This document shows, in pieces, positions 1-23,361 of a DNA stretch of 32,000 nucleotides. Both the position numbers and the translations under genes were made by a program. The stretch lies in the NCBI GenBank assembly GCA_963843975.1, contig CAWJMG010000003.1, forward strand, positions 1,170,001-1,202,000. The letters are read 5' to 3'. Position 1 is the first letter of the stretch. Each line of letters starts with the position of its first letter. Source of the stretch: an uncultured Actinomycetes bacterium (lineage in GTDB: Bacteria; Actinomycetota; Actinomycetes; S36-B12; CAIYMF01). The notes below the pieces were generated by a model. It ran no database searches. It worked only from the letters and a program-made list of their open reading frames with translations, and was not told the DNA's origin.

Positions 1-134
1 TGAAGGTGCTGCGCGACGCCGGCCTGGTCACGGCCACGCGTCGTGGCCGATGGATCGATTACGCCCTCGCCACCGACGCCCGAGACCGCATCGCCGCCGC
101 ACTGCCGACGTCTCCGGGCGGCAACCGGCCATGA
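1..134 (+). CDS. ArsR/SmtB-family transcriptional regulator, C-terminal fragment (5' end lies outside the window)
   Basis: Frame 3 reads KVLRDAGLVTATRRGRWIDYALATDARDRIAAALPTSPGGNRP*. The 'LRDAGLV..RRGRW.DY' stretch is typical of the recognition-helix/wing region of ArsR-type wHTH proteins. The TGA (132-134) overlaps the next ATG (131-133). Confidence 0.7.
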   Translation, partial: KVLRDAGLVTATRRGRWIDYALATDARDRIAAALPTSPGGNRP

Positions 135-1183
135 GCCTGCTGGAACGGATGCCGGAGACGCGCCGTGGTCGCGGACTCACGCTCGCCGCAGCGGGCGCGC
201 TGTGGTTCGCGGCGTACCAGCTGAACGAGCACCTGTGGGACTGGATCCTCTACGGCGCGCTCAGCCTCGACCCGGCGGCGCGCGTCACGGAGACGATCCA
301 CTTCTTCCTGTATGACACGATCAAGATCGCCCTGCTGCTCGTCCTCATCATCTTCACGGTCACCTTCCTGCGGTCGTACATGAGCGTCGAGCGCACCCGC
401 GCCCTCCTCGGCGGCAAGCGCGAAGGTGTCGGCAACGTCATGGCTGCCGGGCTCGGGGTCGTCACGCCCTTCTGCTCCTGCTCGGCGGTCCCCGCCTTCA
501 TCGGCTTCGTCTCCGCCGGTGTCCCGATCGGCGTGACCCTCAGCTTCCTGATCGCATCGCCCATGGTCAACGAGATCGCGATCGGCATGCTTCTCACGCT
601 GTTCGGCATCAAGATCACGGCGATCTACGTCGGCACCGGTCTCGTCATCGCGATCGTCGCCGGCTGGATCCTCGGGCGCCTCGGCGTGGAGCGGTGGGTC
701 GAGCCGTTCGTGTTCGAGACCACACTGCGGGGCAACCCGGTCGACCCGTCCCTCGGGCTCAGCTTCGACGACCGCGTCGCCATGTCGCTGGAGGAGGTCG
801 GCACGGTCCTGCGCAAGATCTGGCCCTACCTGCTCGTCGGCATCGGGCTCGGCGCGGTCATCCACGGTTGGGTGCCGACGGAGTTCTTCACGACGTACGC
901 CGGACCGGGCTCGAGCTTCGGCGTGCTCGTCGCGGTCGGCATCGGCATCCCCCTCTACTCGAACGCCGCCGGCATCATGCCGCTCGTCCAGGCCCTGTAC
1001 GAGAAGGGCCTCCCGATGGGGACGCTCCTCGCGTTCATGATGGCTGTCGTCGCGCTCTCGCTGCCCGAGATGATCCTGCTGCGCCGCGTGCTGAAGCCCC
1101 AGCTGCTGGCCGCCTACGTCGGGGTGGTCGGCACGGGGATCGTGGTGGTCGGCTATCTGTTCAACGCGCTGCTCCCGGCGTGA
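131..1183 (+). CDS. Permease of the UPF0718/ArsP-like family (multi-TM, Cys-motif)
   Basis: Internal ATG of track ORF 50-1183 (MSLLERMPETRRG...), coupled to the ArsR stop by ATGA. Highly hydrophobic with about 8-10 TM segments. Carries the 'VTPFCSCSAVP' motif characteristic of this permease family. Confidence 0.85.
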   Translation: MSLLERMPETRRGRGLTLAAAGALWFAAYQLNEHLWDWILYGALSLDPAARVTETIHFFLYDTIKIALLLVLIIFTVTFLRSYMSVERTRALLGGKREGVGNVMAAGLGVVTPFCSCSAVPAFIGFVSAGVPIGVTLSFLIASPMVNEIAIGMLLTLFGIKITAIYVGTGLVIAIVAGWILGRLGVERWVEPFVFETTLRGNPVDPSLGLSFDDRVAMSLEEVGTVLRKIWPYLLVGIGLGAVIHGWVPTEFFTTYAGPGSSFGVLVAVGIGIPLYSNAAGIMPLVQALYEKGLPMGTLLAFMMAVVALSLPEMILLRRVLKPQLLAAYVGVVGTGIVVVGYLFNALLPA

Positions 1184-1211
1184 CCCTCCCCCACCCACCC
1201 AGGAGAAGTCC

Positions 1212-1454
1212 ATGATCATCAAGGTCCTCGGCCCCGGCTGCACCAACTGCAAGAACCTCGAGCGCGTCACGCGCCAGGCGGTGGCCGAGCTCGGCCTAGA
1301 CGCCAGCATCGAGAAGGTCGAGGACTACGTCACGATCGCCGGATACGGCGTGATGTCGACCCCGGCCCTCGTCGTCGACGAGCAGGTCGTCGTGTCAGGC
1401 CGGGTGCCGACGGTGTCCGCAGTGCGCGAGCTGCTGTCAGCCGGGACCGAGTGA
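1212..1454 (+). CDS. Thioredoxin-fold 'redox-active disulfide protein 2'-type small protein (CxxC)
   Basis: 80 aa starting MIIKVLGPGCTNCKNLE, i.e. an N-terminal beta-strand plus a GCxxC motif. Preceded by GGAGAAG RBS. This kind of protein is typically found next to the UPF0718 permease. Confidence 0.85.
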   Translation: MIIKVLGPGCTNCKNLERVTRQAVAELGLDASIEKVEDYVTIAGYGVMSTPALVVDEQVVVSGRVPTVSAVRELLSAGTE

Positions 1455-1538: not shown

Positions 1539-3266
1539 GTGACCATGCGAACCGGGCCCGAGCACGTCATCCGCTGGAACGACGACGACGAGGCGTGGGA
1601 GACCACGCTGCGCGGACGAGCGGTGCTCGCCGAGCCACGGCTCAACAAGGGGACGGCGTTCAGCACGGCTGAGCGCGAGCAGCTGGGCCTCGTCGGCCTC
1701 CTGCCGCCGCGCGTTCTGACGCTCGAGCAGCAGGCCAGCCGCGCCTACCTGCAGTACCTCGACCAGCCGACCGACCTCGCCAAGAACGTCTTCCTCACCG
1801 CGCTGCACGACCGCAACGAGGTGCTGTTCTTCCGCCTGCTCGGCCACCACCTGCCGGAGATGCTGCCGATCGTCTACACGCCGACCGTGGGCGAGGCGAT
1901 CCAGCGCTACAGCCACGAGTACCGCCGCCCGCGCGGGGTCTACCTGTCCATCGAGGACCCGCACAGCATGGAGGACGCGCTGCTCGCCACTGGTCGAGCG
2001 CGCGACGACGTCGACCTCATCATCGCCACCGACGCAGAGGGCATCCTCGGCATCGGCGACTGGGGCGTCGGCGGCATCGAGATCGCTGTGGGCAAGCTCA
2101 ACGTCTACACCTCCGCCGCCGGCATCAACCCTGCGCGCACGCTCGCCGTGATGCTCGACGTCGGCACCGACCGGCAGGAGCTGCTCGACGACCCGCTCTA
2201 CCTCGGCGTCGCGAAGCCGCGCATCGGGCGCGAGGAGTACGACGCCTTCATCGACCGCTACGTCACCGCGGCGACCAAGCTCTTCCCTCACGCGATCCTG
2301 CACTGGGAGGACTTCGGCACGTCCAACGCGCGCCGCATCCTCGACCGCTACCGCGACGAGGTCCTCACCTTCAACGACGACATGCAGGGCACCGGCGCCG
2401 TGAGCCTCGCGGCCGTGCTGTCGGCCAGCGACGTCAGCGGCACCCCTCTCGCCGAGCACCGGGTCGTCGTGTACGGCTCAGGCACCGCGGGGATCGGCAT
2501 CGCCGACCAGATCCGCGACGCGATGGTCGTGGCCGGCGTGCCCCGGGACGTCGCAACGCGGCAGTTCTGGTGCGTCGGCCGCCACGGCCTCCTCACCGAC
2601 GCCCGCCCCGACCTGCGCGACTTCCAGGAGCCGTTCGCGCGCCCGGTGACCGAGGTCGAGACGTGGGACGTCGACGCCGAGTACGGCGGCGCAAGCCTCG
2701 CGGAGGTCGTACGCCGGGTGCAGCCGACGATCCTGATCGGCACGTCGGGCCGGCCGCAGGCCTTCACCGAGGACGTCGTGCGCGAGATGGCCGCCCACGT
2801 CGACCGCCCGATCATCATGCCGATGTCGAACCCGACGGTTCTGGCCGAGGCGTTCCCCGCCGACCTGCTCGAGTGGACCGACGGCCGCGCCCTCGTCGCC
2901 AGCGGCAGCCCGTTCCCGCCGGTGTCGTACGCCGGGACGACGTACGAGATCGCCCAGGTCAACAACGCGCTGGTCTTCCCGGGCCTCGGCCTCGGCGTCA
3001 TCGTCGCTCGCGCCACGCGCATCACCGACGGCATGCTGCTCGCGGCCGCCCAGGCCGTGGCCGGCAAGGCCGATGCTCACGGTCCGGGGGCCTCGCTGCT
3101 CCCCCGTGTGGCCGACCTGCGTGCGACCTCCGCGGTCGTCGCGGCCGCGGTCGCGCGAGCCGCGCTGGCCGACGGCGTCTCGACGGCACCGGTCGACGAC
3201 ACCCTCGACGCGGTGATCGAGAAGGCCATGTGGCGCTGCGACTACAACGCGGTGCGCGCGGTCTGA
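1539..3266 (+). CDS. NAD(P)-dependent malic enzyme (oxaloacetate-decarboxylating malate dehydrogenase)
   Basis: 575 aa with hallmark motifs VYTPTVGEAIQRYS, ATDAEGILGIGDWGVGGIEIAVGKL, FNDDMQGTGAV and GSGTAGIGIAD. Start is GTG 1539 or ATG 1545. Confidence 0.9.
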   Translation: MTMRTGPEHVIRWNDDDEAWETTLRGRAVLAEPRLNKGTAFSTAEREQLGLVGLLPPRVLTLEQQASRAYLQYLDQPTDLAKNVFLTALHDRNEVLFFRLLGHHLPEMLPIVYTPTVGEAIQRYSHEYRRPRGVYLSIEDPHSMEDALLATGRARDDVDLIIATDAEGILGIGDWGVGGIEIAVGKLNVYTSAAGINPARTLAVMLDVGTDRQELLDDPLYLGVAKPRIGREEYDAFIDRYVTAATKLFPHAILHWEDFGTSNARRILDRYRDEVLTFNDDMQGTGAVSLAAVLSASDVSGTPLAEHRVVVYGSGTAGIGIADQIRDAMVVAGVPRDVATRQFWCVGRHGLLTDARPDLRDFQEPFARPVTEVETWDVDAEYGGASLAEVVRRVQPTILIGTSGRPQAFTEDVVREMAAHVDRPIIMPMSNPTVLAEAFPADLLEWTDGRALVASGSPFPPVSYAGTTYEIAQVNNALVFPGLGLGVIVARATRITDGMLLAAAQAVAGKADAHGPGASLLPRVADLRATSAVVAAAVARAALADGVSTAPVDDTLDAVIEKAMWRCDYNAVRAV

Positions 3267-3973
3267 TCCCGGTCGGCCGGGGCGTCGGTCGGACTCCCGA
3301 CGCGACCGAACGGCAGGGTGTTGCTCGAGCGCTCGTTGTGCAGGTACCGCAGGTGCTCCCGGTCGCCGAGCAGCTCGAGCCGTCGCCACAGCGGGCTGCC
3401 CGGCACGGCCTGGCTCGGGTGCTCCTGCACCGCGGCGAGCTGCGCCGCCCGGTCCACCTCGACGGTGACGTCGACCGCCGCATCCGGTACGCCGACGAAG
3501 CCGGGGAACCCCTCCTCGTCGAGCTGCCGGGTGACCGACTCGGGCAGCGTCCAGGCCACCACATCGACACCCGCACGCCGACCGACCTGCACCGCCGCCT
3601 GCGTCGCCGCGACGTGGTCCGGATGCCCGCTGATACCGGTGGAGTCGAACACGAGCAGCGCGTCCGGCGAGAAGGCGCTGACGGCCGCTGCGACGTCAGC
3701 CACGAGGGCCCCTCCGAGCGATGCGAGCCCGCCGTCGGGCCGATCGAGGAGCCGCACCCAGCACAGGCCCAGTCGCCTCGCTGCCGCGTGCAGCTCCGCC
3801 TCGCGGATCTCGCGCAGGTCTCCGTCGACGCCGTGCAGCGTCGATGCCTCCCCGTGGGTCAGGCAGAGCACACCTACGCGGGCACCCTCCGCGGCCGCCT
3901 GGGCCAGGAGTGCGCCGAGGCCGAACGACTCGTCGTCCGGGTGTGCGACCACCGCCAGGATCGAGGTCGTCAT
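3242..3973 (-). CDS. PIG-L/LmbE-family N-acetylglucosaminyl deacetylase (MshB/Mca-like)
   Basis: 243 aa. N-terminus MTTSILAVVAHPDDESFGLG carries the AHPDDE zinc-site motif. HPDH appears later (ISGHPDHVAAT). GGGGAG RBS upstream. The 3' end overlaps the convergent malic enzyme gene by 25 bp. Confidence 0.85.
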   Translation of the reverse strand: MTTSILAVVAHPDDESFGLGALLAQAAAEGARVGVLCLTHGEASTLHGVDGDLREIREAELHAAARRLGLCWVRLLDRPDGGLASLGGALVADVAAAVSAFSPDALLVFDSTGISGHPDHVAATQAAVQVGRRAGVDVVAWTLPESVTRQLDEEGFPGFVGVPDAAVDVTVEVDRAAQLAAVQEHPSQAVPGSPLWRRLELLGDREHLRYLHNERSSNTLPFGRVGSPTDAPADRDQTARTAL

Positions 3974-4015
3974 GCGTTGCTCCCCTGTTCGTCGGCTGCC
4001 TCATGTGGTCCCGAG

Positions 4016-4057
4016 CGCTCAGGGACCGATACCCCTAGGGGTATCGGTCCCTGAGCG
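4016..4057. promoter_or_regulatory. Perfect 42-bp palindrome with core ATACCCC-TA-GGGGTAT (4029-4044): candidate CsoR/RicR/CstR-type operator and/or intercistronic hairpin
   Basis: CGCTCAGGGACCGATACCCCT|AGGGGTATCGGTCCCTGAGCG checked base by base as 21+21 with no mismatch. It sits between the DUF2202 stop (4106) and the deacetylase start (3973). Confidence 0.6.
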
Positions 4058-4105
4058 TAGCCCCCGGTGCTCCTGCAGGCCACCGTCCCCGGCAGCGGCG
4101 CGCGA

Positions 4106-4813
4106 TCAGCTCGTGAAGGCGGTCAGGTGGTGCTGGGATCCGTTGCGCAGGTTGGTGTACACGCGCTGGACGTCGGCGTGACCCCCCGCGTCCGTGATCG
4201 CCCGGGTGAGGTCGTCGATGTCCATCCTTTCGATCTCGGCGCCGACCACGTCGGCAGCGACAAGGCTGACCGAACCCCGGGCGACGAGATCGTCGTACAG
4301 GGTCTGGAACGACGCGGTGGGGAAGTCGCCTGCCGCGTAGCCGACGGTCGGGTCGGCGATCCCGTAGCGCGTCAGCAGCGTGCGCAGCGACGCCGCGTGC
4401 TTGTCCTCCGCCGCCGCGATCCGCGCGAGCTCGGCGTCCCCGTACTGCGCTGCCAGCGTCGCGTAGACGTCGCCCGCGAGCTTCTCCTCCTCCACCATGG
4501 CCAGAAGGTCCGCCGTCTGCTGGGTCGTGAGAGCAGCTGTGGCGGTTGCGCCACCTGACCCTCGGGTCGCGCCGGCGTTCCCGGAACCGTTCCGGCTGCC
4601 CGAGCGGGTTCCGGCGTTCATGCCGGTCCCGGAGTGGGTGCCGGCGGTCGCGTGGGTACCGGTCCCTGCCCTGCCGTTGCCGTTGCCGTTGCCGTTGCCG
4701 GCGGCAGCGTTCACGGGCTGCGCCTGGGCCGAGCCCACCAGCACACCCGCTGCGATCAAGGCCATCGCCGCTGCGCCCGCCGTGGTCGCGAGTGCGGTTC
4801 GACGTGTCGTCAT
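4106..4813 (-). CDS. Secreted DUF2202 (ferritin-like fold) protein with low-complexity N/G/T/H-rich linker
   Basis: 235 aa. Signal peptide MTTRRTALATTAGAAAMALIAAGVLVGSAQA. The C-terminal 'LLAMVEEEKLAGDVYATLAAQYG...AAAEDKHAASLRTLL' matches the DUF2202 pattern. Confidence 0.8.
   Translation of the reverse strand: MTTRRTALATTAGAAAMALIAAGVLVGSAQAQPVNAAAGNGNGNGNGRAGTGTHATAGTHSGTGMNAGTRSGSRNGSGNAGATRGSGGATATAALTTQQTADLLAMVEEEKLAGDVYATLAAQYGDAELARIAAAEDKHAASLRTLLTRYGIADPTVGYAAGDFPTASFQTLYDDLVARGSVSLVAADVVGAEIERMDIDDLTRAITDAGGHADVQRVYTNLRNGSQHHLTAFTS
4673..4696. repeat. (GCCGTT)x4 hexanucleotide microsatellite inside the DUF2202 gene, encoding (NG)4
   Basis: Direct reading: gccgtt gccgtt gccgtt gccgtt. 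It translates on the minus strand to GNGNGNGNG. Confidence 0.9.
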
Positions 4814-4952
4814 CGTCGTCCTCCTTCATCGGGCCTCCTGCTGATCGCGGGTGGCTCCGAGATGACCATCGGCCCGCTCTGGCGGACGACGCTGTGGCCG
4901 TGATGAACGCCCGCTGAGAGATCGACCCCGAACCGCGCAGGGTCGCCTCACC

Positions 4953-4966
4953 TACCCCTGGGGGTA
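4953..4966. promoter_or_regulatory. CsoR/RicR/CstR-type operator candidate A (TACCCC-TG-GGGGTA) in the divergent DUF2202 / trxA intergenic region
   Basis: GC-tract palindrome flanked by TA/AT, of the same architecture as the 4029-4044 core. Confidence 0.55.
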
Positions 4967-4975
4967 CCTGGGAAC

Positions 4976-4991
4976 ATACCCCGGGGGGTAT
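4976..4991. promoter_or_regulatory. CsoR/RicR/CstR-type operator candidate B (ATACCCC-GG-GGGGTAT), 24 bp centre-to-centre from site A
   Basis: Both 7-nt arms are perfect. The site ends 43 bp upstream of the trxA ATG. Confidence 0.6.
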
Positions 4992-5033
4992 AGTGTTCAG
5001 CAGGGCAGAGACCCCGACTCCTGGAGGACCAGC

Positions 5034-5402
5034 ATGGCCACCCTGACGCTCACCAGCGACACCTTCGAGCAGACCGTGACCGCCGACGGCATCACGTTCG
5101 TCGACTTCTGGGCCGCATGGTGCGGCCCGTGCCGCGCGTTCGCCCCGATCTTCGAGAAGGCGTCCGACAACCACGACGACATCCGCTTCGGGAAGGTCGA
5201 CACCGAGGCCGAGCAGTCGATCGCCGCCGCCGCACAGATCTCCGCCATCCCCACGCTCATGGCGTTCCGCGACGGGATCCTCGTCTACCGCGAGGCGGGT
5301 GCCTTGCGCGAGAAGGACTTCGAGCAGCTGATCACCGCGGTGCGCGAGCTCGACATGGACGACATCCGCGCCCAGGTGGCCGCGGCCAACGCCTCGGTCT
5401 GA
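5034..5402 (+). CDS. trxA: Thioredoxin
   Basis: 122 aa with the canonical FWAAWCGPCRAFAP active site. GGAGGA RBS upstream. Confidence 0.9.
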   Translation: MATLTLTSDTFEQTVTADGITFVDFWAAWCGPCRAFAPIFEKASDNHDDIRFGKVDTEAEQSIAAAAQISAIPTLMAFRDGILVYREAGALREKDFEQLITAVRELDMDDIRAQVAAANASV

Positions 5403-5433: not shown

Positions 5434-5838
5434 GTGAAGAACCCCGCCCGCATGGCAGTGCTCGCCCTCATCGCCCTCGTCGGCTCGTTGGTCCTCGCCG
5501 GCTGCGGTGGCGGCAGCAGCGTGCAGACCGTGAGCCCACAGGACTTCCTGGCCAAGGCATCCACGTCCGGGGTCGTGGTGGTGGACGTCCGCACCGCAGG
5601 CGAGTTCGCCCAGGGCCACGTCGACGGAGCGATCAACATCGACGTCGAGGCACCCACGTTCGACGCGCAGATCGGCCAGCTCGACAAGGCAGCGACGTAC
5701 GCCGTCTACTGCCACAGCGGCCGCCGCTCGGGGCTCGCCACGGACGCGATGGGCAAGGCCGGCTTCACGAGCGTGTACAACCTGCAGGGCGGCATCGCCG
5801 ACCTCCAGTCCGCCGGCGCCTCGATCGTCACCGGTTAG
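5434..5838 (+). CDS. Rhodanese-domain lipoprotein (extracytoplasmic sulfurtransferase)
   Basis: 134 aa. Signal peptide plus lipobox (LVLAGCGGGSS). Rhodanese active-site loop YCHSGRRS. GTG start 31 nt after the trxA stop. Confidence 0.85.
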   Translation: MKNPARMAVLALIALVGSLVLAGCGGGSSVQTVSPQDFLAKASTSGVVVVDVRTAGEFAQGHVDGAINIDVEAPTFDAQIGQLDKAATYAVYCHSGRRSGLATDAMGKAGFTSVYNLQGGIADLQSAGASIVTG

Positions 5839-5847
5839 CCGCACCGC

Positions 5848-6330
5848 ATGCCGTACGACCGTTCGGCCTGGGCGGCGCTCGCCCAGTGGCCTCGACGCCG
5901 CTGGGTGGCCGCAGGCCTCGCGACGATCAGCACGGTGCTCGTCCTCGGCAGCCCCACGGTGCTCGTGCCGACTCCGGTGTTCGGCCGCGAGGTCGCGGTG
6001 ACGGGGTGGGCCTGGCCCGCCCTGATCGTGACATCCGTTCTGGCGGGTCTCGTCGCCGCGACCTACGTGCGCACAGGTGCGCCGGAGGTGCGCGACGATT
6101 TCAGCCGGGTCGGGCTTGCGGGCGGCTTCCTGACCTACCTCGCCGTCGGCTGCCCGGTGTGCAACAAGATCGCGCTGCTCGCACTCGGGTACACAGGCGC
6201 CCTGCAGTGGTTCGCACCGGTGCAGCCGTTCCTCGCCGTGGCCGGCATCGCACTGCTCGCCTACGCACTTCAGCGCAGGCTGGAGGGCGAGAGGTCCTGC
6301 CGTGTCCCGGACTCCGCGACGGCGTCATGA
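5848..6330 (+). CDS. Integral membrane protein (about 4 TM) with intramembrane CPVC motif, unknown family
   Basis: 160 aa with four hydrophobic segments. 'LAVGCPVCNKIALLALG' lies in predicted TM3. The gene starts 9 nt after the rhodanese stop. Confidence 0.7.
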   Translation: MPYDRSAWAALAQWPRRRWVAAGLATISTVLVLGSPTVLVPTPVFGREVAVTGWAWPALIVTSVLAGLVAATYVRTGAPEVRDDFSRVGLAGGFLTYLAVGCPVCNKIALLALGYTGALQWFAPVQPFLAVAGIALLAYALQRRLEGERSCRVPDSATAS

Positions 6331-6680
6331 ACCCCGCCGCACCAGACCTGCTCGGCACGCTGCTCGAGGACGCCGCCCTCACGCTCTCGCGACTGGCCGG
6401 CGGTGCCGCCGTCTGCACGTTCAGCCGTGCTGGGGTCCCGGTGCCGGGTATCAAGTACGCCGAAGGCCGCTGGGCAGCCCTCCGCGGGGTGCAGCGCGCC
6501 GCCCTCCGAGGAGCCGACCTCGGCGAGGCATCGTCCGACGCACTCGCGACGTGGTCGCGCGAGCTCGAGTCCGCGGCCTCCCGCGAGCACGGGCGCGACT
6601 GGATCGCCTACCGAACCGGTGGTGTCGACGCGATCTGCGAGCTGCTCGACCGCCACGCCGCGCCGAGTCCGGGTGCATGA
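6327..6680 (+). CDS. Hypothetical protein (117 aa), translationally coupled to the CPVC membrane protein
   Basis: ATGA overlap at 6327-6330. It is the in-frame tail of track ORF 5886-6680 (MNPAAPDLLGTLLEDAALTL...). High GC3. I recognise no domain. Confidence 0.55.
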   Translation: MNPAAPDLLGTLLEDAALTLSRLAGGAAVCTFSRAGVPVPGIKYAEGRWAALRGVQRAALRGADLGEASSDALATWSRELESAASREHGRDWIAYRTGGVDAICELLDRHAAPSPGA

Positions 6681-6763: not shown

Positions 6764-6955
6764 ATGTTCGGGATCGGCGGCTTCACCGGTGGCAGCAAGA
6801 ACGGCGACCACTATGAGATCGAGGTCAACGAGGGCTCGGTGAACATGAAGAAGTTCAGCTCGGCGGCCAACGAGCGCCACGCCAACGGCTATCGCATGGC
6901 CCACGTCTTCATGCAGGAGGGCAACACGATCGTCGTCTGGGAGAAGGTCGGCTGA
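6764..6955 (+). CDS. Small hypothetical protein (63 aa), possibly DUF4177-like
   Basis: ATG preceded by GAGGAGGG RBS (6752-6759). Sequence: MFGIGGFTGGSKNGDHYEIEVNEGSVNMKKFSSAANERHANGYRMAHVFMQEGNTIVVWEKVG. GC is noticeably lower than in neighbouring genes. Confidence 0.6.
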   Translation: MFGIGGFTGGSKNGDHYEIEVNEGSVNMKKFSSAANERHANGYRMAHVFMQEGNTIVVWEKVG

Positions 6956-7009
6956 CCGCCAGGCGGTACGTCGCACGCTGACACCTCCTCGCTGCGGGAC
7001 AATCAGCCG

Positions 7010-8326
7010 GTGGAGCGCATCAGCGGCAGGGCCTGGCTCGTCTGGGCCGTCGCCGTCGGCGCCTACACGATCGCGGTGCTGCAGCGAACGTCGCTGAGCG
7101 TCGCAGGGCTCGACGCCGCCGCCCGCCTCGAGGTGTCGGCCGGCGTCCTCGGCACCTTCGCCGTCGTCCAGCTGCTCGTGTACGCCGGCATGCAGGTGCC
7201 GGTCGGCGTGATGGTCGACCGCGTCGGTCCGCGCGTGCTCGTCGTGACGGGTGCGGTCCTCATGGCCGTCGGCCAGGTGAGCCTCGCGCTCGCGCACTCG
7301 TTCCCCGCGGCGCTCGCTGCCCGGGTGCTCGTGGGGGCCGGCGACGCGATGACGTTCATCGCGGTGCTGCGCCTCGTCACCGCGTGGTTCCCGCCGCGGC
7401 GAGTGCCGCTCATGACCCAGGTGACCGGCCTCGTCGGGCAGACCGGCCAGCTCCTCAGCATCATCCCGCTCGCCGCGCTGCTGCACGGCCCGGGGTGGAC
7501 GCCGGCGTTCCTGTCCGCAGCGTCGCTGTCGGTCCTCTTCGCCGTCCTCGCGTTCCTGGTCGTGCGCGACACCCCGACCGGCAACCGGACCGACGAGGCG
7601 TCGCCGTCGTGGGCCCAGGTGCGGCACGATCTCGTGAGCGCGTGGAAGCACCCCGGCACCCGGCTCGGACTGTGGACCCACTTCACGACGCCGTTCGCGA
7701 GCACCGCGTTCCTGCTGCTGTGGGGGTACCCGTTCCTCGTGTCCGCCCAGGGCCTCACCCGGGCCGAGGCCAGCGTGCTGTTCAGCGTGATGACGGTGGT
7801 GGGCCTCGTCGCCGCACCCTTCCTCGGCGAGGCGGTGGCCCGGCATCCGCTGCGCCGCAGCTGGATCGTGCTCACCATCGTCGGCACGACCATCGCCGTG
7901 TGGACGGCGGTCCTCGTCCTCGCGGGCCCGGCGCCTCGGTGGCTGCTGCTGCTGCTCGTGGTCGTGCTCGCAGTCGGCGGCCCTGCGTCCATGATCGGCT
8001 TCGACTACGCGCGCACGTTCAACCCGCCCAACCGGATCGGCACGGCCACCGGCATCGTGAACGTCGGCGGGTTCGTGTCGGCGCTGATCGTCATCCTGCT
8101 GATCGGTCTCGTGCTCGACTGGACCGGCAGCGGGTCGTCGTACTCGCTCGAGGGGTTCCGAGCGGCGTTCAGCGTGCAGTACGTGATCTGGGCGATCGGC
8201 GTCGCAGGGATCCTGCGGACCCGTCATGTCGTCCGCACCCGCCTCGCGGAGGACGGCATCGTCGTGCCCCCGATGCGCGACGTGGTGCGACGTCGACGCG
8301 CAGCGCGTCGCGGCACGCCGCGCTGA
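7010..8326 (+). CDS. MFS transporter
   Basis: 438 aa with 12 hydrophobic segments. MFS-like loop motif 'GVMVDRVGPR' between TM2 and TM3. Confidence 0.85.
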   Translation: MERISGRAWLVWAVAVGAYTIAVLQRTSLSVAGLDAAARLEVSAGVLGTFAVVQLLVYAGMQVPVGVMVDRVGPRVLVVTGAVLMAVGQVSLALAHSFPAALAARVLVGAGDAMTFIAVLRLVTAWFPPRRVPLMTQVTGLVGQTGQLLSIIPLAALLHGPGWTPAFLSAASLSVLFAVLAFLVVRDTPTGNRTDEASPSWAQVRHDLVSAWKHPGTRLGLWTHFTTPFASTAFLLLWGYPFLVSAQGLTRAEASVLFSVMTVVGLVAAPFLGEAVARHPLRRSWIVLTIVGTTIAVWTAVLVLAGPAPRWLLLLLVVVLAVGGPASMIGFDYARTFNPPNRIGTATGIVNVGGFVSALIVILLIGLVLDWTGSGSSYSLEGFRAAFSVQYVIWAIGVAGILRTRHVVRTRLAEDGIVVPPMRDVVRRRRAARRGTPR

Positions 8327-10429: not shown

Positions 10430-10756
10430 CTACTCCAACGCGCGCAGGTAGGACCGAGCTGCCTCGACGTCATCCTCGTAGGGCAGGACTGAGTCGAGCC
10501 TCGTGATGGAGAGCACCCGCCGCACGGCGCCCTGAGCGCCGGCGAGCACGAGCCTGCCACCGGCCTCCTCGCGGCGGCGCAGCGCGCGCACGAACCGCGA
10601 CAGGGTCACGGAGTCGACGAACTGCACGGCGGACAGGTCCACGATGAGTCGACCGTCGAGCGGCGCCGAGGCGAGCATCGCGTCGATCTCGTCCAGGCGC
10701 GTGATGTCCAGCTCGCCGACAGGTGCGGCCACGACGACGGACTGGTCGACGTTCAT
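10430..10756 (-). CDS. STAS-domain anti-sigma-factor antagonist (RsbV/RsfA-like)
   Basis: 108 aa. 'VVDLSAVQFVDSVTLSRFVRALRR' is the typical STAS phospho-site region (DS). Confidence 0.85.
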   Translation of the reverse strand: MNVDQSVVVAAPVGELDITRLDEIDAMLASAPLDGRLIVDLSAVQFVDSVTLSRFVRALRRREEAGGRLVLAGAQGAVRRVLSITRLDSVLPYEDDVEAARSYLRALE

Positions 10757-10774
10757 CTCCGACCGCGAGTGCGG

Positions 10775-11371
10775 TCAGCGCGCGTCACCGGGTCCACCGG
10801 AGAGAGGGCTCCGCTGACCAGGCATCCCCGCTCCGTCACCCAGGCTTCCGCCCGCCCCGGCGGCGCGCTCCTGATCGCGGAGCGGGTAGTCGGTGAGGTC
10901 GACGGACGTGTCGCCGGCGCCCTCCTCGACGGTGCCGCGCCAGCCGCCCTCGGCCTCACCGCGCTCCTCGATGAAGTCCTTGAACCTCTCGAGCGAGCCG
11001 TTGACGGACGACGAGACGACACCCAGCGCGTCGCCGACGCGCTCGGTGACGCCATGCGGCTCGAAGTCGAGGCGCAGCGTCACCCTCGTGTGCTCGGGGT
11101 CGAGGCTGGCGAAGGTGACTCGCCCCGCCTGCTCCGGGCCGTCCACACTGGACCAGGCGATGACCTGGCCCGGGTGCTGCTCGACGATGCGGGCGTCGTA
11201 CTCGCGCGACACGCCGCCGACGGAGACCCGCCAGTGCGTCAACGTGTCGTCGATCTGTCGCACCGACTCCACGTTGTCCATGAAGTGCGGGTAGGACTCG
11301 AACTGCGTCCACTGGTCGTAGACGGTCGTGATCGGTCGATCCACGACAACTGAGTGCTCGTGCGTGGTCAT
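10775..11371 (-). CDS. SRPBCC-family (cyclase/dehydrase-like) protein
   Basis: 198 aa. 'VVVDRPITTVYDQWTQFESYPHFMDNVESV' is the typical N-terminus of this family. AGGAGG RBS upstream. Confidence 0.85.
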   Translation of the reverse strand: MTTHEHSVVVDRPITTVYDQWTQFESYPHFMDNVESVRQIDDTLTHWRVSVGGVSREYDARIVEQHPGQVIAWSSVDGPEQAGRVTFASLDPEHTRVTLRLDFEPHGVTERVGDALGVVSSSVNGSLERFKDFIEERGEAEGGWRGTVEEGAGDTSVDLTDYPLRDQERAAGAGGSLGDGAGMPGQRSPLSGGPGDAR

Positions 11372-14268: not shown

Positions 14269-14538
14269 ATGCTCTGGTTCATCATCGTCACCATCGTGAT
14301 CGGCTTCATCGCCGGTCTCATCGCCCGGGCGATCCTGCCCGGCAACGACTCGATGGGGCTGCTCGCGACGACGGTCCTCGGCATCGTCGGGTCCCTGGTC
14401 GGAGGCTTCCTGGGCTACGCGCTCACCGGGGCCGACCGCGCCGACGGCGCCTTCCAGACCTCGGGCCTCATCGGGTCCGTCCTCGGCGCCATCGTCGTGC
14501 TGCTCCTGGTCCGGATGACACGCCGTGCTCGCACCTGA
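14269..14538 (+). CDS. GlsB/YeaQ/YmgE-family stress-response membrane protein
   Basis: 89 aa. AAGGAGAAG RBS. MLWFIIVTIVIGFIAGLIARAILPG...GIVGSLVGGFLG matches the family signature. Confidence 0.85.
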   Translation: MLWFIIVTIVIGFIAGLIARAILPGNDSMGLLATTVLGIVGSLVGGFLGYALTGADRADGAFQTSGLIGSVLGAIVVLLLVRMTRRART

Positions 14539-15112
14539 CCGCGGCACCGATCCGCAGCGCCCCGCCGGCGACTTCATCCGCGACGTCGAGACGCTGCGCG
14601 CCCAGGCACGCGCCAACATCGACAAGGGTGCCGTCACCGAGGCGTACAGCGGTGATGTCGACCGGGTCGTGCAGATGCTGCAGACCGCGCTGGCGACCGA
14701 GGTCGTGTGCGTCCTGCGCTACCGCCAGCACCACTACGCGGCTCGCGGTATGGACGCCGAGCCCATCGCGGCCGAGTTCCTCGTCCACTCGGAGGAGGAG
14801 CTGCGCCACGCGGGCATGATCGCCGCCCGCATCAGCCAGCTCGGAGGCACGCCCGACTTCCATCCCTCGACGCTGGAGGCGCGTTCGCACAGCCAATACG
14901 TCGAGGCCAACTCCTTGCGCGACATGGTGACGGAGAACCTCGTGGCCGAGCGTGTGGCCGTCGCGTCGTACACGGACATCATCGAGTGGCTCGGGTCCAG
15001 CGACCCCACCACCCGACGGATGCTCGAGGAGATCCTCGCCGTCGAAGAGGAGCACGCCGACGACCTGGTGTCGATGCTCGACGGCCTTCCGACACCGCGC
15101 ATCATCCGCTGA
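14525..15112 (+). CDS. Ferritin-like (bacterioferritin/Dps-superfamily) di-iron protein
   Basis: 195 aa. 'LQTALATEVVCVLRYRQHHY', 'AAEFLVHSEEELRHAGMIAARISQLGGTPDF' and 'EEILAVEEEHADDLVSML' provide the ExxH metal-site helices. The GTG start overlaps the glsB-like stop by 14 nt. Confidence 0.85.
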   Translation: MLAPDRGTDPQRPAGDFIRDVETLRAQARANIDKGAVTEAYSGDVDRVVQMLQTALATEVVCVLRYRQHHYAARGMDAEPIAAEFLVHSEEELRHAGMIAARISQLGGTPDFHPSTLEARSHSQYVEANSLRDMVTENLVAERVAVASYTDIIEWLGSSDPTTRRMLEEILAVEEEHADDLVSMLDGLPTPRIIR

Positions 15113-15331: not shown

Positions 15332-15366
15332 ACGAGGGCGCGCCCGCACTGCGGGCGTGCCCTCGT
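15332..15366 (+). terminator. GC-rich hairpin (16-bp stem, one mismatch, 3-nt loop) after the glsB/ferritin/small-membrane operon
   Basis: ACGAGGGCGCGCCCGC-ACT-GCGGGCGTGCCCTCGT, 25 nt after the stop at 15307. There is no U-tract, which is common for actinobacterial terminators. Confidence 0.5.
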
Positions 15367-15390
15367 CGTCCTCCTGGGCGGTCTCACGGG

Positions 15391-15415
15391 GTTTGAGCGG
15401 TCCACCACGGGGCAT
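15391..15415 (+). promoter_or_regulatory. SigF/SigB-type promoter candidate P7: (G)GTTT-N15-GGGCAT, upstream of the GAF-PP2C phosphatase gene
   Basis: Plus strand reads GTTTGAGCGGTCCACCACGGGGCAT. It lies about 67 nt before GTG 15483. Confidence 0.6.
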
Positions 15416-15482
15416 ACCGGTGGTACGCGTACGGCCTCGACCTCGGAGCCGCCGCCGCGTCGACCGCGAGGGGGTGGTTGCA

Positions 15483-17261
15483 GTGCCGCTCGACAGCGCC
15501 ACCGACGCCCTCATCGCGCTGGCGGCCGACCTCGCCGGCGCGACCGACACGACAGCGGTCGTCGACGTCATGACCGCGCAGTGCCCGCCCCTCCTGGGGG
15601 CAAGCATGGTCACCGTCTCCCTCGTCGAGGAGGACGGGCAGACGCTGAGGCTCGTCGCGTCGGTCAACACGCCCACCCCCGTCGTGCTGGCGTTCGACAC
15701 GTACGAGACCGGGCTGCACCTTCCCGCCGGCGACGCCCTCCGTTCCGGCGAGCCGGTCGTCGTGCACACCGTGCAGGAGCTCCACGCGCGCTACCCGTCG
15801 CTGGCCGACGTCGACCTCGAGCACTCGGCGCTGGCCGTTCTGCCCCTCGAGCACGACAGCACACCGCTCGGCGTCCTCGGCCTCGGCTGGTGCGACACCG
15901 ACGAGATGACCCCCGACGTCCTCGCGATGGCGGGATCGGTCACCATGCTCTGCTCGGCCGCGCTGCGCCGCGTGATCGCCGCCGAGCACCCTGGTCGCGA
16001 GCGCAGCCGCGCCGAAGCAGCGCTCGCCAGTCTTCGCTCGTTGCAGGCCGTCGCCGCCGAGCTCGCCCACACGGTCGACCTCTCACAGGCCGGCGCCGTG
16101 GTGCTCGAGCACGCCGTGACAGCGCTGGGCGCGGAGGCCGGCGCGCTCAACGTGCTCGACGAGGACGGCGTCGAGTGCACGCAGATCGCCACGGTCGGCA
16201 TGAGCGGCTCGCCCGTCTCCGACTGGTCGACCTGGCAGGTGCGCGACTCGTCCCTCGCACGCGAGCTGGTCCGCACCGGGCTGCCGATCCTCATCACCGA
16301 CGCCATGAACCAGCGCGAGCGGTTCCCCGATCTCGACGTCCACGAGCTGCCGCAGCAGGCGTGGGCCAACCTGCTGCTGGTGTCCGGCTGCCGCAACCTC
16401 GGGATCGTGTCGATCGGATGGCGCGAGCCGCGCGAGTTCGGCAGTGAGGACGTGTCGTTGCTGCAGACGCTCGCCGACCACCTGGCCGCGGCCCTGGACC
16501 GCAACCGCCTCATGTCCTCGAACGACGCCCTGCTCACCGAGAGCACCCGCGTGGCGGAGACACTGCAGCGCTCGCTCATGCCCGGGCCGCTGCCCGAGTG
16601 GCCGGGGGTCGACCTGGCCGCGGGGCTGCAGCCCGCGGAGACCGGCACGGAGGTCTGCGGCGACTTCTACGACGCCTTCCCGGCTCTGGACGGCTCGCTG
16701 GTCGTCGTGATCGGCGACGTCGCCGGGCGCGGTGTGACCGCCGCAGGGCTCACCGGCATGGTGCGGCACACGCTGCGGGCGCTCGCCCGCGACATGCCGC
16801 CGGCCGAGGCCCTGAGCCGGCTCAACCGGGCGCTGGTCGAGGGCGCCTGGGCAGACGAGCCCCGACTGCTCACAGCGGCGATGCTGCGGCTCACGCGCCG
16901 CGAGGAGGGGCTGCACGTGGAGATCTCGCTCGCGGGGCACTGCCTGCCCGTGGTGGTGCGCGACCACGTCGCCGCGCACGTCGGCGACCCGGGCATGCTC
17001 CTCGGCGCGTTCGCCGACGTGCGGATCGGGACGGCGTCCGTCGACCTCTCCCCCGGCGACGTGCTGCTGCTGCACACGGACGGCGTCACCGAGGCGCGCA
17101 GGCACGGCATCGAGTTCGGCGAGGCGCGGCTGCTCAAGATGCTCGGCGCGCTCGCCGACCCGCGCCCCGCGGACACCGTGGAGCACGTGCTCGGGTCGGT
17201 CGACTGGTACCGCACGACCGCACCGGACGACATGGCCGTGCTCGTTCTGCGCGCGACCTAG
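15483..17261 (+). CDS. GAF-GAF-PP2C (SpoIIE-type) serine phosphatase, RsbU/RsbP-like partner-switching input
   Basis: About 592 aa from GTG 15483 (GAGGGGG RBS). There are two GAF-like N-terminal regions. The C-terminal 'EVCGDFYDAF...VVIGDVAGRGVTAAGLTGMVRHTLRA...LLLHTDGVTEA' matches PP2C/SpoIIE motifs. Confidence 0.85.
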   Translation: MPLDSATDALIALAADLAGATDTTAVVDVMTAQCPPLLGASMVTVSLVEEDGQTLRLVASVNTPTPVVLAFDTYETGLHLPAGDALRSGEPVVVHTVQELHARYPSLADVDLEHSALAVLPLEHDSTPLGVLGLGWCDTDEMTPDVLAMAGSVTMLCSAALRRVIAAEHPGRERSRAEAALASLRSLQAVAAELAHTVDLSQAGAVVLEHAVTALGAEAGALNVLDEDGVECTQIATVGMSGSPVSDWSTWQVRDSSLARELVRTGLPILITDAMNQRERFPDLDVHELPQQAWANLLLVSGCRNLGIVSIGWREPREFGSEDVSLLQTLADHLAAALDRNRLMSSNDALLTESTRVAETLQRSLMPGPLPEWPGVDLAAGLQPAETGTEVCGDFYDAFPALDGSLVVVIGDVAGRGVTAAGLTGMVRHTLRALARDMPPAEALSRLNRALVEGAWADEPRLLTAAMLRLTRREEGLHVEISLAGHCLPVVVRDHVAAHVGDPGMLLGAFADVRIGTASVDLSPGDVLLLHTDGVTEARRHGIEFGEARLLKMLGALADPRPADTVEHVLGSVDWYRTTAPDDMAVLVLRAT

Positions 17262-18163
17262 GTCCCCGAGCGGCCCTCGTGGGCGGCGAGCTCCAGAGCC
17301 TCCGCCAGAGTCCGCTGCGCGAGACCTCCGCCCTCCACCTGAGCCCACGTCACCGGTGTCGCCGCCGTGGGGCTCTCCCTGCCGCGCAGGGACCACGGCA
17401 CGATCGTCGTCTTGGCGGGATTGTTCTGGCTCCAGTCGACCAGCACCCTGCCGGGTCGCAGCTCACGCGCCTGCCGGGTCACGACCAGGTCGGGCAAGCC
17501 CACCTCGAGAGCGCGGGCGAGGGTGTGCGCGTAGTCCGACACCGACCCCACGCGTGCCACCGCCTCGGACGCATCGCCGGGCGTGAGGTCGGCGTACAGC
17601 TGCAGCCCCTTCGAGCCGCTGGTCACCGCGCGGGCGACGAGGCCGTCAGCTGCCAGCAGGTCGCGAGCGGCGATGGCCACCTCGGCGCAGGCGTCCAGAC
17701 CTGCGGGCGCGCCGGGGTCGAGATCCACCACGAGCCGGTCGGGAAGCAGCGGCTCGCCCGTGGCCCTGTCGGCCCGCCACTGGGGCGCGTGGAGCTCGAG
17801 GGCGCCGGACTGCGCCAGCCAGACCAGCACGGCCTCGTCGTCGACCAGCGGGTAGTCGAGGTCCCGCGGAGGACGACCCGACCGCTCCCCCGTGTGGTGC
17901 TGCGTCATGCGCGGCACCCACTCGGGGGTGCCGCGCGGAAGGTTCTTCTCGATGAACGGCTCATGGTCGACGCCGTCCGGCCATCGCTTGCGCGTGACCG
18001 GACGGTCGCGCAGCTCGGGGAGGATCCGCGGCGCGACGCCGAGGTAGTACTGCAGCACGTCGGCCTTGGTGGTGCCGGTGCTCGGGTAGAGCACCTTGTC
18101 GAGGTTCGTCACGCGGACCTCGCGCCCGGCGACCGTCACCGAGCCGCCCGCCGACGCGCTCAT
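17258..18163 (-). CDS. Stand-alone LigD polymerase/primase domain protein (NHEJ PolDom)
   Basis: 301 aa. 'VRVTNLDKVLYPSTGTTKADVLQYYLGVAPRILPELRDRPVTRKRWPDGV' is the typical LigD-Pol N-terminus. Its stop shares a CTAG with the convergent phosphatase stop. Confidence 0.85.
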   Translation of the reverse strand: MSASAGGSVTVAGREVRVTNLDKVLYPSTGTTKADVLQYYLGVAPRILPELRDRPVTRKRWPDGVDHEPFIEKNLPRGTPEWVPRMTQHHTGERSGRPPRDLDYPLVDDEAVLVWLAQSGALELHAPQWRADRATGEPLLPDRLVVDLDPGAPAGLDACAEVAIAARDLLAADGLVARAVTSGSKGLQLYADLTPGDASEAVARVGSVSDYAHTLARALEVGLPDLVVTRQARELRPGRVLVDWSQNNPAKTTIVPWSLRGRESPTAATPVTWAQVEGGGLAQRTLAEALELAAHEGRSGT

Positions 18164-18189
18164 GCCGCGGCACCGGTGCTGCCGGGCCA

Positions 18190-18215
18190 GGTTTGGTGCT
18201 CGTGGTTCACGGGAA
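18190..18215 (+). promoter_or_regulatory. SigF/SigB-type promoter candidate P8: (G)GTTT-N16-GGGAAT, upstream of ku
   Basis: Plus strand reads GTTTGGTGCTCGTGGTTCACGGGAAT. The -10 element ends 40 nt before ATG 18256. Confidence 0.6.
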
Positions 18216-18255
18216 TCTCCCTCGTTGGTGTCCTGACGGTGCGAGGAGAGCGGCC

Positions 18256-19302
18256 ATGCAGTCGATGTGGAAGGGGTCCGTCTCGTTCGGGCTCGTCAAC
18301 GTACCGGTGAAGCTGCACGCCGCGACCGAGGATCACGACGTCCGCTTCCACCAGGTGCACGCCGCAGACGGAGGCCGCGTGAAGATGGTGCGCACCTGCT
18401 CGGTCGACGGCCAGCCGGTCGCGTACGACGAGCTCGCCAAGGCGTACGAGACGCCGGGCGGCGAGCTGGTGGTCATGGACGACCGCGACTTCGACAGCCT
18501 TCCCGTGCGCGGCAAGCGCGAGATCGACGTGCTGGAGTTCGTCCCGTCCGACCAGGTCGACCCTGTCCTCTTCGACCGCAGCTACTACCTGGAGCCCGAG
18601 CCGCGCGCCCTCAAGCCGTACGTGCTGCTGCGCGAGGCTCTGCGGACCACCGAGCGCACGGCCCTCGTCCGCGTCGTGCTGCGGCAGAAGTCCCAGCTGG
18701 CGGCGCTGCGGGTCCGCGACGACGTCATCCTCCTGCAGACCATGCTCTGGCCGGACGAGGTGCGCAGCCCGACCTTCGGCGTGCTGGACGCCGATGCCGA
18801 GATCCGCCCGCAGGAGCTCGCGATGGCGTCGTCCCTGATCGACAGCCTGGCCGGCGACTTCGACCCCGATCGCTTCCACGACGAGTACCGCGAGGCGCTG
18901 CTCGAGGTGATCGACCGCAAGCTCGCCGGCGGTGGCGGCGTGCCCTCGGAGGTCGCAGCCGCGGGCGAGGACGACGGCGACGCGATCGTCGTGGACCTGA
19001 TGGCAGCGCTGCGCGAATCGGTCAAGCGCAGCGGGCGCACCGACGCTGCAGCAGAGCGGCGCCCATCGCCGACCGCCAGACCCGTCAAGGACGCGGCTCC
19101 GAAGAAGAAGGCCGGTCAGCGGACGGCCGCTGCGGCAGAGCCGGCGAAGCGAGCCAGCACGGCGACCCGCGCGAGCGCGGCGAAGAAGACCAGCCGGTCC
19201 ACCACGTCCACGAAGGCCGCAGGTGCCTCCGCAGGGGCCAAGCGCTCGACCACGAAGAAGGCGGCGGCGTCGGCCAAGCAGAGCAAGCGCCGCAGCGCCT
19301 GA
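18256..19302 (+). CDS. ku: Ku protein (NHEJ DNA end-binding) with Lys/Ala-rich basic C-terminal tail
   Basis: 348 aa from ATG 18256 (GAGGAGAG RBS). MQSMWKGSVSFGLVNVPVKLHAATEDHDVRFHQVH is the canonical bacterial Ku N-terminus. The tail is rich in KKK/AKR repeats. Confidence 0.9.
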   Translation: MQSMWKGSVSFGLVNVPVKLHAATEDHDVRFHQVHAADGGRVKMVRTCSVDGQPVAYDELAKAYETPGGELVVMDDRDFDSLPVRGKREIDVLEFVPSDQVDPVLFDRSYYLEPEPRALKPYVLLREALRTTERTALVRVVLRQKSQLAALRVRDDVILLQTMLWPDEVRSPTFGVLDADAEIRPQELAMASSLIDSLAGDFDPDRFHDEYREALLEVIDRKLAGGGGVPSEVAAAGEDDGDAIVVDLMAALRESVKRSGRTDAAAERRPSPTARPVKDAAPKKKAGQRTAAAAEPAKRASTATRASAAKKTSRSTTSTKAAGASAGAKRSTTKKAAASAKQSKRRSA

Positions 19303-22478: not shown

Positions 22479-22507
22479 TGGGATCCCATCAGGTGCGCTC
22501 GAGCGAT

Positions 22508-23295: not shown

Positions 23296-23361
23296 CGCCG
23301 GCCGCAGCCGCCGGTCGACGCCGGTCGACGCGGGGGCGGCGTACCGCCGGTCAGTGAACGG

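Follow-up and report, generated by a model that had tools for sequence, protein, structure and literature searches.

Putative operators of a CstR-like repressor in an uncultured actinobacterium, one of them nested in a candidate SigR/SigH-type thioredoxin promoter

We examined a 32-kb stretch of DNA from an uncultured Actinomycetes bacterium (contig CAWJMG010000003.1), referred to here as the window, which is actinobacterial DNA of 72% G+C. Its intergenic regions carry copies of the palindrome ATACCCC-N2-GGGGTAT, and we consider it likely that these are operators of a repressor of the CsoR/RcnR family (PF02583), belonging to the CstR-like branch of actinomycetes that includes ScCsoR (SCO0620) and Rv1766. 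With the same degree of confidence we predict that this repressor has two cysteines, is without the copper-ligating histidine and is encoded outside the window. Its signal is most likely reactive (sulfane) sulfur rather than copper. In front of an operon headed by a thioredoxin gene (trx), a perfect copy of the operator is nested in the spacer of a promoter of apparent SigR/SigH type. This arrangement is a new detail, as a literature search returned no report of a CsoR-family operator in the spacer or start-site region of SigR/SigH promoters.

A scan of the window with ATACCCCNNGGGGTAT at up to three mismatches gave exactly four matches, starting at positions 1465, 4029, 4952 and 4976, all of them intergenic. 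Dinucleotide-preserving shuffles had a mean of 0.24 matches and none of 100 shuffles reached four; with the looser published consensus ATACC-N6-GGTAT, at no more than one mismatch, the window held three matches against 0.07 expected. The four sites read (A/C)TACCCC-N2-GGG(G)T(A/G)(T/C), with inverted TAC...GTA dyads flanking interrupted G/C tracts. A sequence-only reading of this DNA had reported copies of the palindrome, two of them in tandem, and these counts confirm it. The tandem pair is spaced 24 bp from start to start. The sites, given without a strand, are as follows.

1465-1480, no strand: operator-like site ATACCCCCCAGGGTGT, 2 mismatches, 58 bp upstream of the malic-enzyme start codon
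4029-4044, no strand: perfect operator site ATACCCCTAGGGGTAT, 0 mismatches, 56 bp upstream of the PIG-L deacetylase start and 61 bp downstream of the DUF2202 stop
4952-4967, no strand: distal, weaker operator-like site CTACCCCTGGGGGTAC, 2 mismatches, ending 2 bp before the GGGAAC -35 element
4976-4991, no strand: proximal perfect operator ATACCCCGGGGGGTAT, 0 mismatches, 43 bp upstream of the trx start and inside the promoter spacer

Protein-anchored look-ups provided syntenic loci of 15-21 kb each from four related uncultured actinobacteria. These were L003, a 'Candidatus Nanopelagicales' metagenome-assembled genome (MAG) with about 79% nucleotide identity to the window, L137, L138 and a more distant relative, L132, whose thioredoxin and PIG-L protein are 81% and 74% identical to those of the window. 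All four have kept the proximal trx site. The 4029 site is present in L003 and L137, and L138 is without both the PIG-L gene and the site. The copy at 1465, which had been called degenerate, proved to be a real site: it recurs, imperfect GTGT arm included, in the three lineages L003, L137 and L138, and in L003 it forms a conserved island of an otherwise poorly conserved intergenic region. A one-mismatch site was also seen in a Propionicimonas locus (L135), between the rhodanese and membrane-protein genes. An Rfam search gave no match anywhere in the window. The trx/DUF2202 intergenic region holds, outside the operators, a further block, GATGAA(C/T)G-N4-GCTGAGAG (4896-4930), which is conserved in all four syntenic lineages and may be the DUF2202 promoter or the site of another regulator.

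The trx operon appears to be driven by the following promoter.

4970-4997, + strand: candidate SigR/SigH-type extracytoplasmic function (ECF) promoter, GGGAACA-(operator)-AG-TGTT, driving the trx operon

The layout is GGGAACA, then ATACCCCGGGGGGTAT, which shares the final A, then AG and TGTT. The published SigR/SigH consensus is gGGAAta-16-19 nt-(C/T)GTTgaa and relatives (PMC3489674), and 4970-4997 has the GGAA(T/C) -35 and GTT -10 elements at 16-19 nt in the notation of that paper. The pattern GGAA[TC]-N17-19-GTT has a single match in the 32 kb on either strand, which is the trx promoter itself. When the regions upstream of trx from 19 loci were aligned, a conserved GGAAT ... GTT pair was present in most, and the promoter elements are conserved in L003, L132, L137 and L138. 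In L138 the -35 element and the operator have two bases in common, and two extra bases follow the operator, such that the N19 spacing is kept; this compensated indel is as a functional promoter would predict. A generic sigma-70 scan found nothing, and a sigma-70 reading of the trx promoter, with TATAGT overlapping the operator, was dropped in favor of the conserved GGAAT/GTT elements. Sigma dependence of the SigR/SigH type and the start site of the trx promoter are predictions. Since the operator fills the spacer, a bound repressor would be expected to occlude the ECF-sigma promoter.

The same association is found elsewhere. GGAAT-N17-19-GTT lies within 40 bp of 11 of 130 exact metagenome sites, compared with about 1.2 expected from its density in those loci. 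Two geometries were seen. In the first, the operator starts 0-2 nt after GTT (L043, L044, L046, L095, L103 and L118). In the second, it is nested in the spacer, as in the window, L003, both the trx and the persulfide dioxygenase (pdo) promoters of L132, L137, L138, L079, L021 and L058.

The palindromes were assigned to an operator class by comparison with published sites. The operator of S. coelicolor ScCsoR, as defined by electrophoretic mobility shift assay (EMSA), is a 16-bp palindrome, ATACC-n6-GGTAT (PMC7533328), and the window sites match this 16-bp architecture exactly. ScCsoR has two sites in the pdo promoter, represses pdo, tauE, rhod and itself, and is released by polysulfide through Cys37 and Cys66 (PMC7533328). 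In a sequence similarity network (SSN) it falls in cluster 3 together with Rv1766, a group of actinomycete candidate persulfide sensors that carry an x-C-x-C motif and are described as 'largely uncharacterized' (PMC8643695). Type-2 operators of the CsoR family are defined by TAC...GTA dyads around interrupted G/C tracts (PMC3902906), and published members differ in spacing. The site in the M. tuberculosis ricR promoter, TACCCCGCTGGGTA, has the spacing TAC-X8-GTA (PMC3944814), whereas the S. lividans CsoR consensus ATATACCCCTNAGGGGTATAT (PMC3902906) and the S. mitis CstR operator ATATACCCTTATGGGGTATAT (PMC8643695) have an odd centre and the spacing TAC-X9-GTA. Every site in the window and its relatives is TAC-X8-GTA, and the TAC-X9-GTA of S. 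lividans, B. subtilis and S. mitis was not seen among them. Because the ScCsoR and M. tuberculosis ricR sites share it, the X8 spacing represents a known sub-type and does not exclude the family. The assignment to CsoR/RcnR made in the sequence-only reading is therefore supported by the G/C-tract TAC...GTA architecture, by the ScCsoR/ricR spacing and by an association of the motif with PF02583 genes in metagenomes.

For the latter, a metagenome collection was scanned for the exact motif ATACCCC-N2-GGGGTAT, giving at least 120 loci (675 kb); the counts that follow refer to the loci listed. A CsoR-family (PF02583-type) open reading frame (ORF) was present in 28 of 120 loci, or about 41 per Mb, and the protein-anchored loci L002-L010 and L131-L139, about 150 kb together, had none. 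Of the 28 regulator ORFs, 22 have the site on their upstream side, with matching orientation. In 13 it is 40-225 bp upstream of the regulator domain, and in 9 more it is 430-1130 bp upstream in the same orientation, typically in the order site-trx-regulator or site-rhodanese-regulator. When the readable regulators were aligned to M. tuberculosis CsoR, 25 of 27 had Cys-(G/S/N/A/Y/I)-Cys at positions X-Y-Z, and C-H-C occurred in only two, both from low-GC DNA; all readable regulators from loci above 60% GC were without the copper-ligating His. The motif-adjacent regulators have a Cys...Cys pair 29 residues apart and no His, as in ScCsoR.

The genes beside the motif were also analyzed. Pfam assignments for 148 first flanking ORFs gave Rhodanese as the commonest family (20), followed by Trns_repr_metal (12), Thioredoxin (11), Pyr_redox_2 (9), Lactamase_B (8) and DAO (6); E1-E2 ATPase and HMA were found 3 and 2 times, respectively. 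Thioredoxins 37-67% identical to that of the window occur in 17 loci, mostly directly beside the site, which is usually 30-60 bp upstream, and in several of these the regulator gene is next. PIG-L homologues were found in four loci, and in two, L076 and L083, the PIG-L gene adjoins a CstR-like regulator gene, and in L021 a homologue of the window's CPVC membrane protein lies downstream of an exact operator. In L132 both a trx-rhodanese-membrane-p112-TehB operon and a PDO-Rhod/Rhod/TauE/PIG-L/SLAC1 operon, the latter being the classic persulfide-detoxification set, are preceded by exact operators. The sequence-only reading had held that the cargo could fit either copper or sulfur. Here the balance tips to sulfur: given the C-x-C regulators, sulfur-gene flanks and L132 operons next to the motif, sulfane sulfur is the most likely signal and copper a much less probable one. 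Within the window, the target type expected of a CstR-like regulon is represented by the rhodanese, and PDO and TauE are not in the window. In a separate actinobacterial locus (L077, 121-1707), three exact operators surround trx, a 38-aa Cys-rich ORF, a TlpA-like membrane thioredoxin and a zinc-ribbon-repeat protein, which suggests that thiol-redox regulons of this repressor type are wider still.

We searched the window for the regulator gene itself. A tblastn search with five CsoR-family probes gave no match in the 32-kb window, a CsoR-family hidden Markov model (HMM; 35 members, filters off, up to E = 50) found nothing in the window, and Pfam scans of all other window genes gave no CsoR-family gene. 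The probes do work, as the same five, plus two added, detect the CsoR of an Atribacteria MAG (L001) at 1e-11 to 1e-13. Neither was a CsoR-family ORF found in about 100 kb of related loci (L003, L132, L135, L137 and L138). Two ORFs of the window, of 117 and 63 aa, were considered as hidden regulators and ruled out, having no family match and no CsoR-HMM signal. The earlier proposal that no regulator is nearby, and that regulation hence occurs in trans, is accordingly supported for the window and five related lineages, and the predicted repressor would be encoded outside the window. At the left end of the window (50-1454) lie an ArsP_1 permease, which resembles SaoE and the SO_0444 Cu/Zn efflux proteins at scores below cut-off, and then an 80-aa Thioredoxin_3 protein; any regulator of the permease would be beyond the window's left edge.

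The genes adjoining the sites are listed below.

1539-3266, + strand: malic enzyme, NAD(P)-dependent, putative regulon member (Pfam malic and Malic_M; NCBIfam oxaloacetate-decarboxylating malate dehydrogenase)
3242-3973, - strand: PIG-L family deacetylase (MshB/Mca/BshB-like), putative regulon member (Pfam PIG-L)
4106-4813, - strand: DUF2202 (ferritin-like) exported protein (Pfam DUF2202)
5034-5402, + strand: thioredoxin (WCGPC), first gene of the operon (Pfam and NCBIfam thioredoxin)
5434-5838, + strand: single-domain rhodanese with a lipoprotein signal (LAGC lipobox) (Pfam Rhodanese; sequence)
5848-6330, + strand: CPVC membrane protein, 160 aa, four-helix (no Pfam match)
6327-6680, + strand: 117-aa protein with one invariant Cys, always after the membrane protein (no Pfam or NCBIfam match)
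6764-8326, + strand: 63-aa ORF and major facilitator superfamily (MFS) transporter, continuing the trx operon (Pfam MFS_1)

Pfam agreed with the gene calls made from the sequence alone (DUF2202, PIG-L, thioredoxin, rhodanese and CPVC membrane protein), the CPVC protein having no Pfam family. The order of the 63-aa ORF and the MFS gene is kept in L003 and L138. Matches of the PIG-L protein to the NCBIfam models BshB, Mca and MshB were all below cut-off. The CPVC membrane protein has 2543 homologues, which make up a large actinobacterial family; the motif AVGCPVCNK is invariant in this family, as is a C-terminal Cys. Neither Pfam nor NCBIfam has a family for the protein, and an AlphaFold2 (AF2) model with a predicted local distance difference test (pLDDT) score of 79.8 gave no fold match in the PDB at E <= 0.001. 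Its constant downstream partner is a protein of 109-117 aa with one invariant Cys. The two are found together at window 5848-6680, L021 1016-1869, L132 10001-10782 and L135 10001-10851, and constitute a conserved, undescribed actinobacterial gene pair; in L021 a second CxxC membrane protein precedes the CPVC gene. The membrane-protein operon also occurs in cultured relatives such as Propionicimonas and Raineyella. From these features, a relay from thioredoxin via the membrane CxxC protein to the exported rhodanese would be a reasonable inference. The gene set had been described as unusual. This applies to malic enzyme and DUF2202, which are lineage-specific, but not to thioredoxin, rhodanese, PIG-L and the CPVC protein, which recur beside the operator elsewhere.

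The DUF2202 protein requires separate comment. It has a twin-arginine-type signal (N-terminus MTTRRTAL...AQA) and a linker that is rich in Gly, Ala, Thr and Asn. The claim that this linker is rich in His and Met did not withstand a composition count, which showed that just 2 of the 64 residues are His and 1 is Met; as it is not His/Met-rich, the linker gives no argument for a metal. A short tandem GCCGTT repeat (4672-4694) encodes the (Asn-Gly)n stretch of the linker. The DUF2202 contig search was dominated by the protein's NGNGNGNG stretch and matched two distant loci, L001 being one. In L007 and L132 the DUF2202 gene lies beside an OmpR-type two-component system with no operator, and its membership in the regulon is uncertain for this reason. 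The distant DUF2202 homologues of L007 and L010 were set aside as a guide to context, their contexts being unrelated.

At the PIG-L gene, the operator is part of a longer structure.

4016-4057, no strand: perfect 42-bp palindrome around the 4029 operator, with arms of 21+21 nt that are 100% complementary

Read as coding-strand RNA, this segment has a folding energy of -64 kcal/mol (z = -7.8). Extended palindromes likewise occur at the orthologous sites of L003 and L137, where the arms have other sequences. In this comparison of three sequences only, both partners have changed in 5 of 19 pairs, and 84% of cells are paired compared with 33-49% when partners are slid. L138, which is without PIG-L, has an ordinary GC-rich hairpin without a tail at the corresponding position, the 3' end of DUF2202. 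One could therefore propose, for 4016-4057 only, that the element is primarily an RNA hairpin with an incidental operator-like core and that PIG-L is not controlled by the repressor. The perfect 42 bp far exceed any operator's need, and the stability of the fold, the covarying arms in L003 and L137 and the plain hairpin of L138 would all suit this proposal. We nevertheless regard it as unlikely. All three lineages preserve an operator consensus in the 16-bp core despite the changes in the arms, and the probability that a hairpin core would match ATACCC...GGGTAT three times by chance is small. In addition, the L132 orthologue of PIG-L lies inside an operator-controlled operon, PIG-L genes stand beside CstR-like genes in L076 and L083, and no U-run follows the hairpin, as an intrinsic terminator would have. 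As tail-less hairpins also end genes in L138, the element may be a non-canonical terminator. We read 4016-4057 as a probable 3' hairpin or tail-less terminator of the DUF2202 transcript, built around the PIG-L operator, and the two functions may well coexist. A hairpin containing an operator is a new detail, of which a literature search returned no description.

Four of 132 exact sites lie in long perfect palindromes, the other three being at L035 2748-2787, L054 1345 and L096 2086, extended by at least 11 bp to about 38 to 58 bp. That of L035 can be read as a pair of divergent TTGCAT-N18-TATAGT promoters that overlap fully and have the operator as their common spacer. The window's 42-bp palindrome was considered as a symmetric bidirectional promoter of the L035 kind and rejected, as its arms hold no convincing promoter and lack sequence conservation.

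Several observations weigh against a CstR-like, sulfane-sulfur-responsive repressor. The cognate regulator was not found in the window, so the repressor and its sensor residues are predicted from sites and relatives, and the window contains no ECF sigma gene. Recognisable promoter elements are absent at the malic-enzyme and PIG-L sites, and the distal 4952 site is kept only in L003, having decayed in L137 and L138. The metagenome figures cover the listed loci only and use crude ORF calling, and their proportions are approximate. Moreover, the motif alone cannot tell sulfur sensors from copper sensors, the ricR site having the same spacing. P-type ATPases are preceded by the exact motif in three high-GC loci, two showing CPC/HMA features. 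Finally, the Atribacteria MAG L001 (34% GC, 158-1617) has a C-H-C CsoR beside a DUF2202 gene and a small membrane protein, with a two-mismatch site, CTACCCCCCTGGGTAT, about 30 bp upstream of csoR; DUF2202 may thus have a copper link in other phyla.

The last three of these would be accommodated if a copper-sensing repressor of the CsoR/RicR type (C-H-C) bound the sites and the genes formed a copper-stress regulon. The shared TAC-X8-GTA spacing of TACCCCGCTGGGTA (PMC3944814), the ATPase loci and the C-H-C CsoR of L001 speak for such a regulon, as would the below-cut-off resemblance of the ArsP_1 permease to SO_0444 Cu/Zn efflux proteins and an insignificant MerT-like match of the CPVC protein (E = 0.027). 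We consider this improbable, more so than the hairpin proposal. No copA, copZ, multicopper oxidase or metallothionein lies beside any of the four sites, and the DUF2202 linker is not His/Met-rich. The motif-adjacent regulators are without the copper-ligating His in 25 of 27 cases, including all readable ones above 60% GC, and flanking genes favor sulfur over copper by about 15 to 1. In L132 the orthologous PIG-L and trx operons go with a persulfide dioxygenase/TauE operon that has the same kind of operator. That the palindromes are bound by a non-CsoR regulator, or are non-regulatory repeats, would agree with the lack of a regulator gene within 32 kb and with the 4 of 132 exact sites in long perfect palindromes, but is very improbable given an enrichment of PF02583 ORFs of about 40-fold or more beside the exact motif (with the site mostly in their own upstream region), an architecture identical to an EMSA-defined site, the absence of an Rfam match and window copies that are all intergenic, two of the four recurring in every syntenic relative examined.

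Thus, a persulfide-type repressor of the CsoR family remains our preferred reading, and the kind of system is known, with a target set that is partly new. The closest counterpart is the ScCsoR circuit of S. coelicolor, which is alike in its 16-bp ATACC-N6-GGTAT operator, two sites in a target promoter, a rhodanese target and a high-GC actinomycete host. Unlike in that circuit, no regulator gene adjoins the targets here, the window lacks persulfide dioxygenase and TauE, the targets are thioredoxin, lipoprotein rhodanese, CPVC protein, PIG-L and malic enzyme, and the operator is nested in an ECF-type promoter. The CstRs of S. aureus, E. faecalis and streptococci are likewise CsoR-family dithiol persulfide sensors that repress sulfurtransferase genes via TAC/GTA-flanked G/C-tract palindromes, with two tetramers binding per operator in the cst operons. 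These Firmicute proteins fall in SSN clusters 4 and 10, the regulator is normally beside its own operon, and the S. mitis cst operator, the one quoted here, is TAC-X9-GTA, whereas the window has TAC-X8-GTA. The RicR regulon of M. tuberculosis shares the operator spacing and is dispersed, one repressor acting in trans on several unlinked loci. However, RicR is a C-H-C Cu(I) sensor, and its copper-related targets (lpqS, mymT, socAB, mmcO and Rv2963) have no counterparts in the window. S. lividans CsoR (PMC3902906) has TAC/GTA dyads bridging G-tracts and a 2:1 tetramer:DNA stoichiometry, but its ATATACCCCTNAGGGGTATAT has an odd centre (TAC-X9-GTA) and it controls copZA and csoR. On the promoter side, those of SigR (Streptomyces) and SigH (Mycobacterium and Corynebacterium) resemble the trx promoter in the GGGAAT/C -35 element, the (C/T)GTT -10 element, the 16-19 nt spacer and the position upstream of thioredoxin; trx genes and the PIG-L-family amidase Mca are also members of their regulons (PMC3489674).

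On the model of these systems, the reduced, tetrameric repressor would occupy the sites. As persulfides or polysulfides rise, its cysteines would become persulfidated or cross-linked and the DNA would be released, as in ScCsoR and CstR. At trx, the main operator lies in the 19-bp spacer (17 bp in the notation of PMC3489674) between GGGAAC and TGTT, where a bound repressor would block the ECF holoenzyme, and the weaker second site would abut the -35 element. Single sites upstream of the malic-enzyme and PIG-L genes would serve those genes, the PIG-L site doubling as the core of the long hairpin that probably ends the DUF2202 transcript. Among the products, thioredoxin would reduce persulfides, the lipoprotein rhodanese would transfer sulfane sulfur, and the CPVC membrane protein with its one-Cys partner could provide a thiol relay. 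The PIG-L deacetylase may support the supply of low-molecular-weight (mycothiol-type) thiols or the turnover of their conjugates, and the malic enzyme may provide NAD(P)H. A broader and more tentative proposal, which we hold to be possible but rather less likely than its opposite, is a two-input gate present in many actinobacteria. A persulfide repressor would sit on SigR/SigH promoters, and trx would fire only when the thiol-stress sigma factor and sulfane sulfur coincide, here gating an undescribed sulfur relay of the envelope from cytoplasmic thioredoxin through the CPVC protein and its partner to the lipoprotein rhodanese, with malic enzyme and PIG-L extending the regulon to NAD(P)H supply and low-molecular-weight-thiol metabolism.

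The remainder of the window contains genes of other kinds. A partner-switching stress module is spread over 10433-11371, 15357-17258 and 22466-24626, and includes a STAS anti-anti-sigma protein, two HATPase_c_2 anti-sigma kinases, a GAF-SpoIIE phosphatase and a group-3-like sigma factor (317 aa). It is accompanied by a Dps-type ferritin (14525-15109) and by polyketide-cyclase/CsbD-type genes, and is partly syntenic in L003, L131 and L138. A divergent LigD primase-polymerase/Ku pair for non-homologous end joining lies at 17261-19299, the Ku having a long, Lys/Ala-rich tail. A 701-aa DEAD/Helicase_C protein, the C-terminal third of which has no Pfam family (19445-21547), and a DUF222 protein (25971-27365) are both also found in L137.

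Taken together, the sites provide a testable regulon, in an uncultured lineage, for the 'largely uncharacterized' actinomycete branch of CsoR-family persulfide sensors (PMC8643695). This regulon would extend past the persulfide dioxygenase/rhodanese/TauE core to thioredoxin, PIG-L, malic enzyme and the widespread CPVC family. For annotation, the exact motif marks sulfur-stress genes about fifteen times more often than copper genes among the listed loci. An operator placed within a SigR/SigH-type promoter would join two thiol-stress circuits that are usually treated apart and, if confirmed, would explain how a specialised thioredoxin is kept for sulfur stress.

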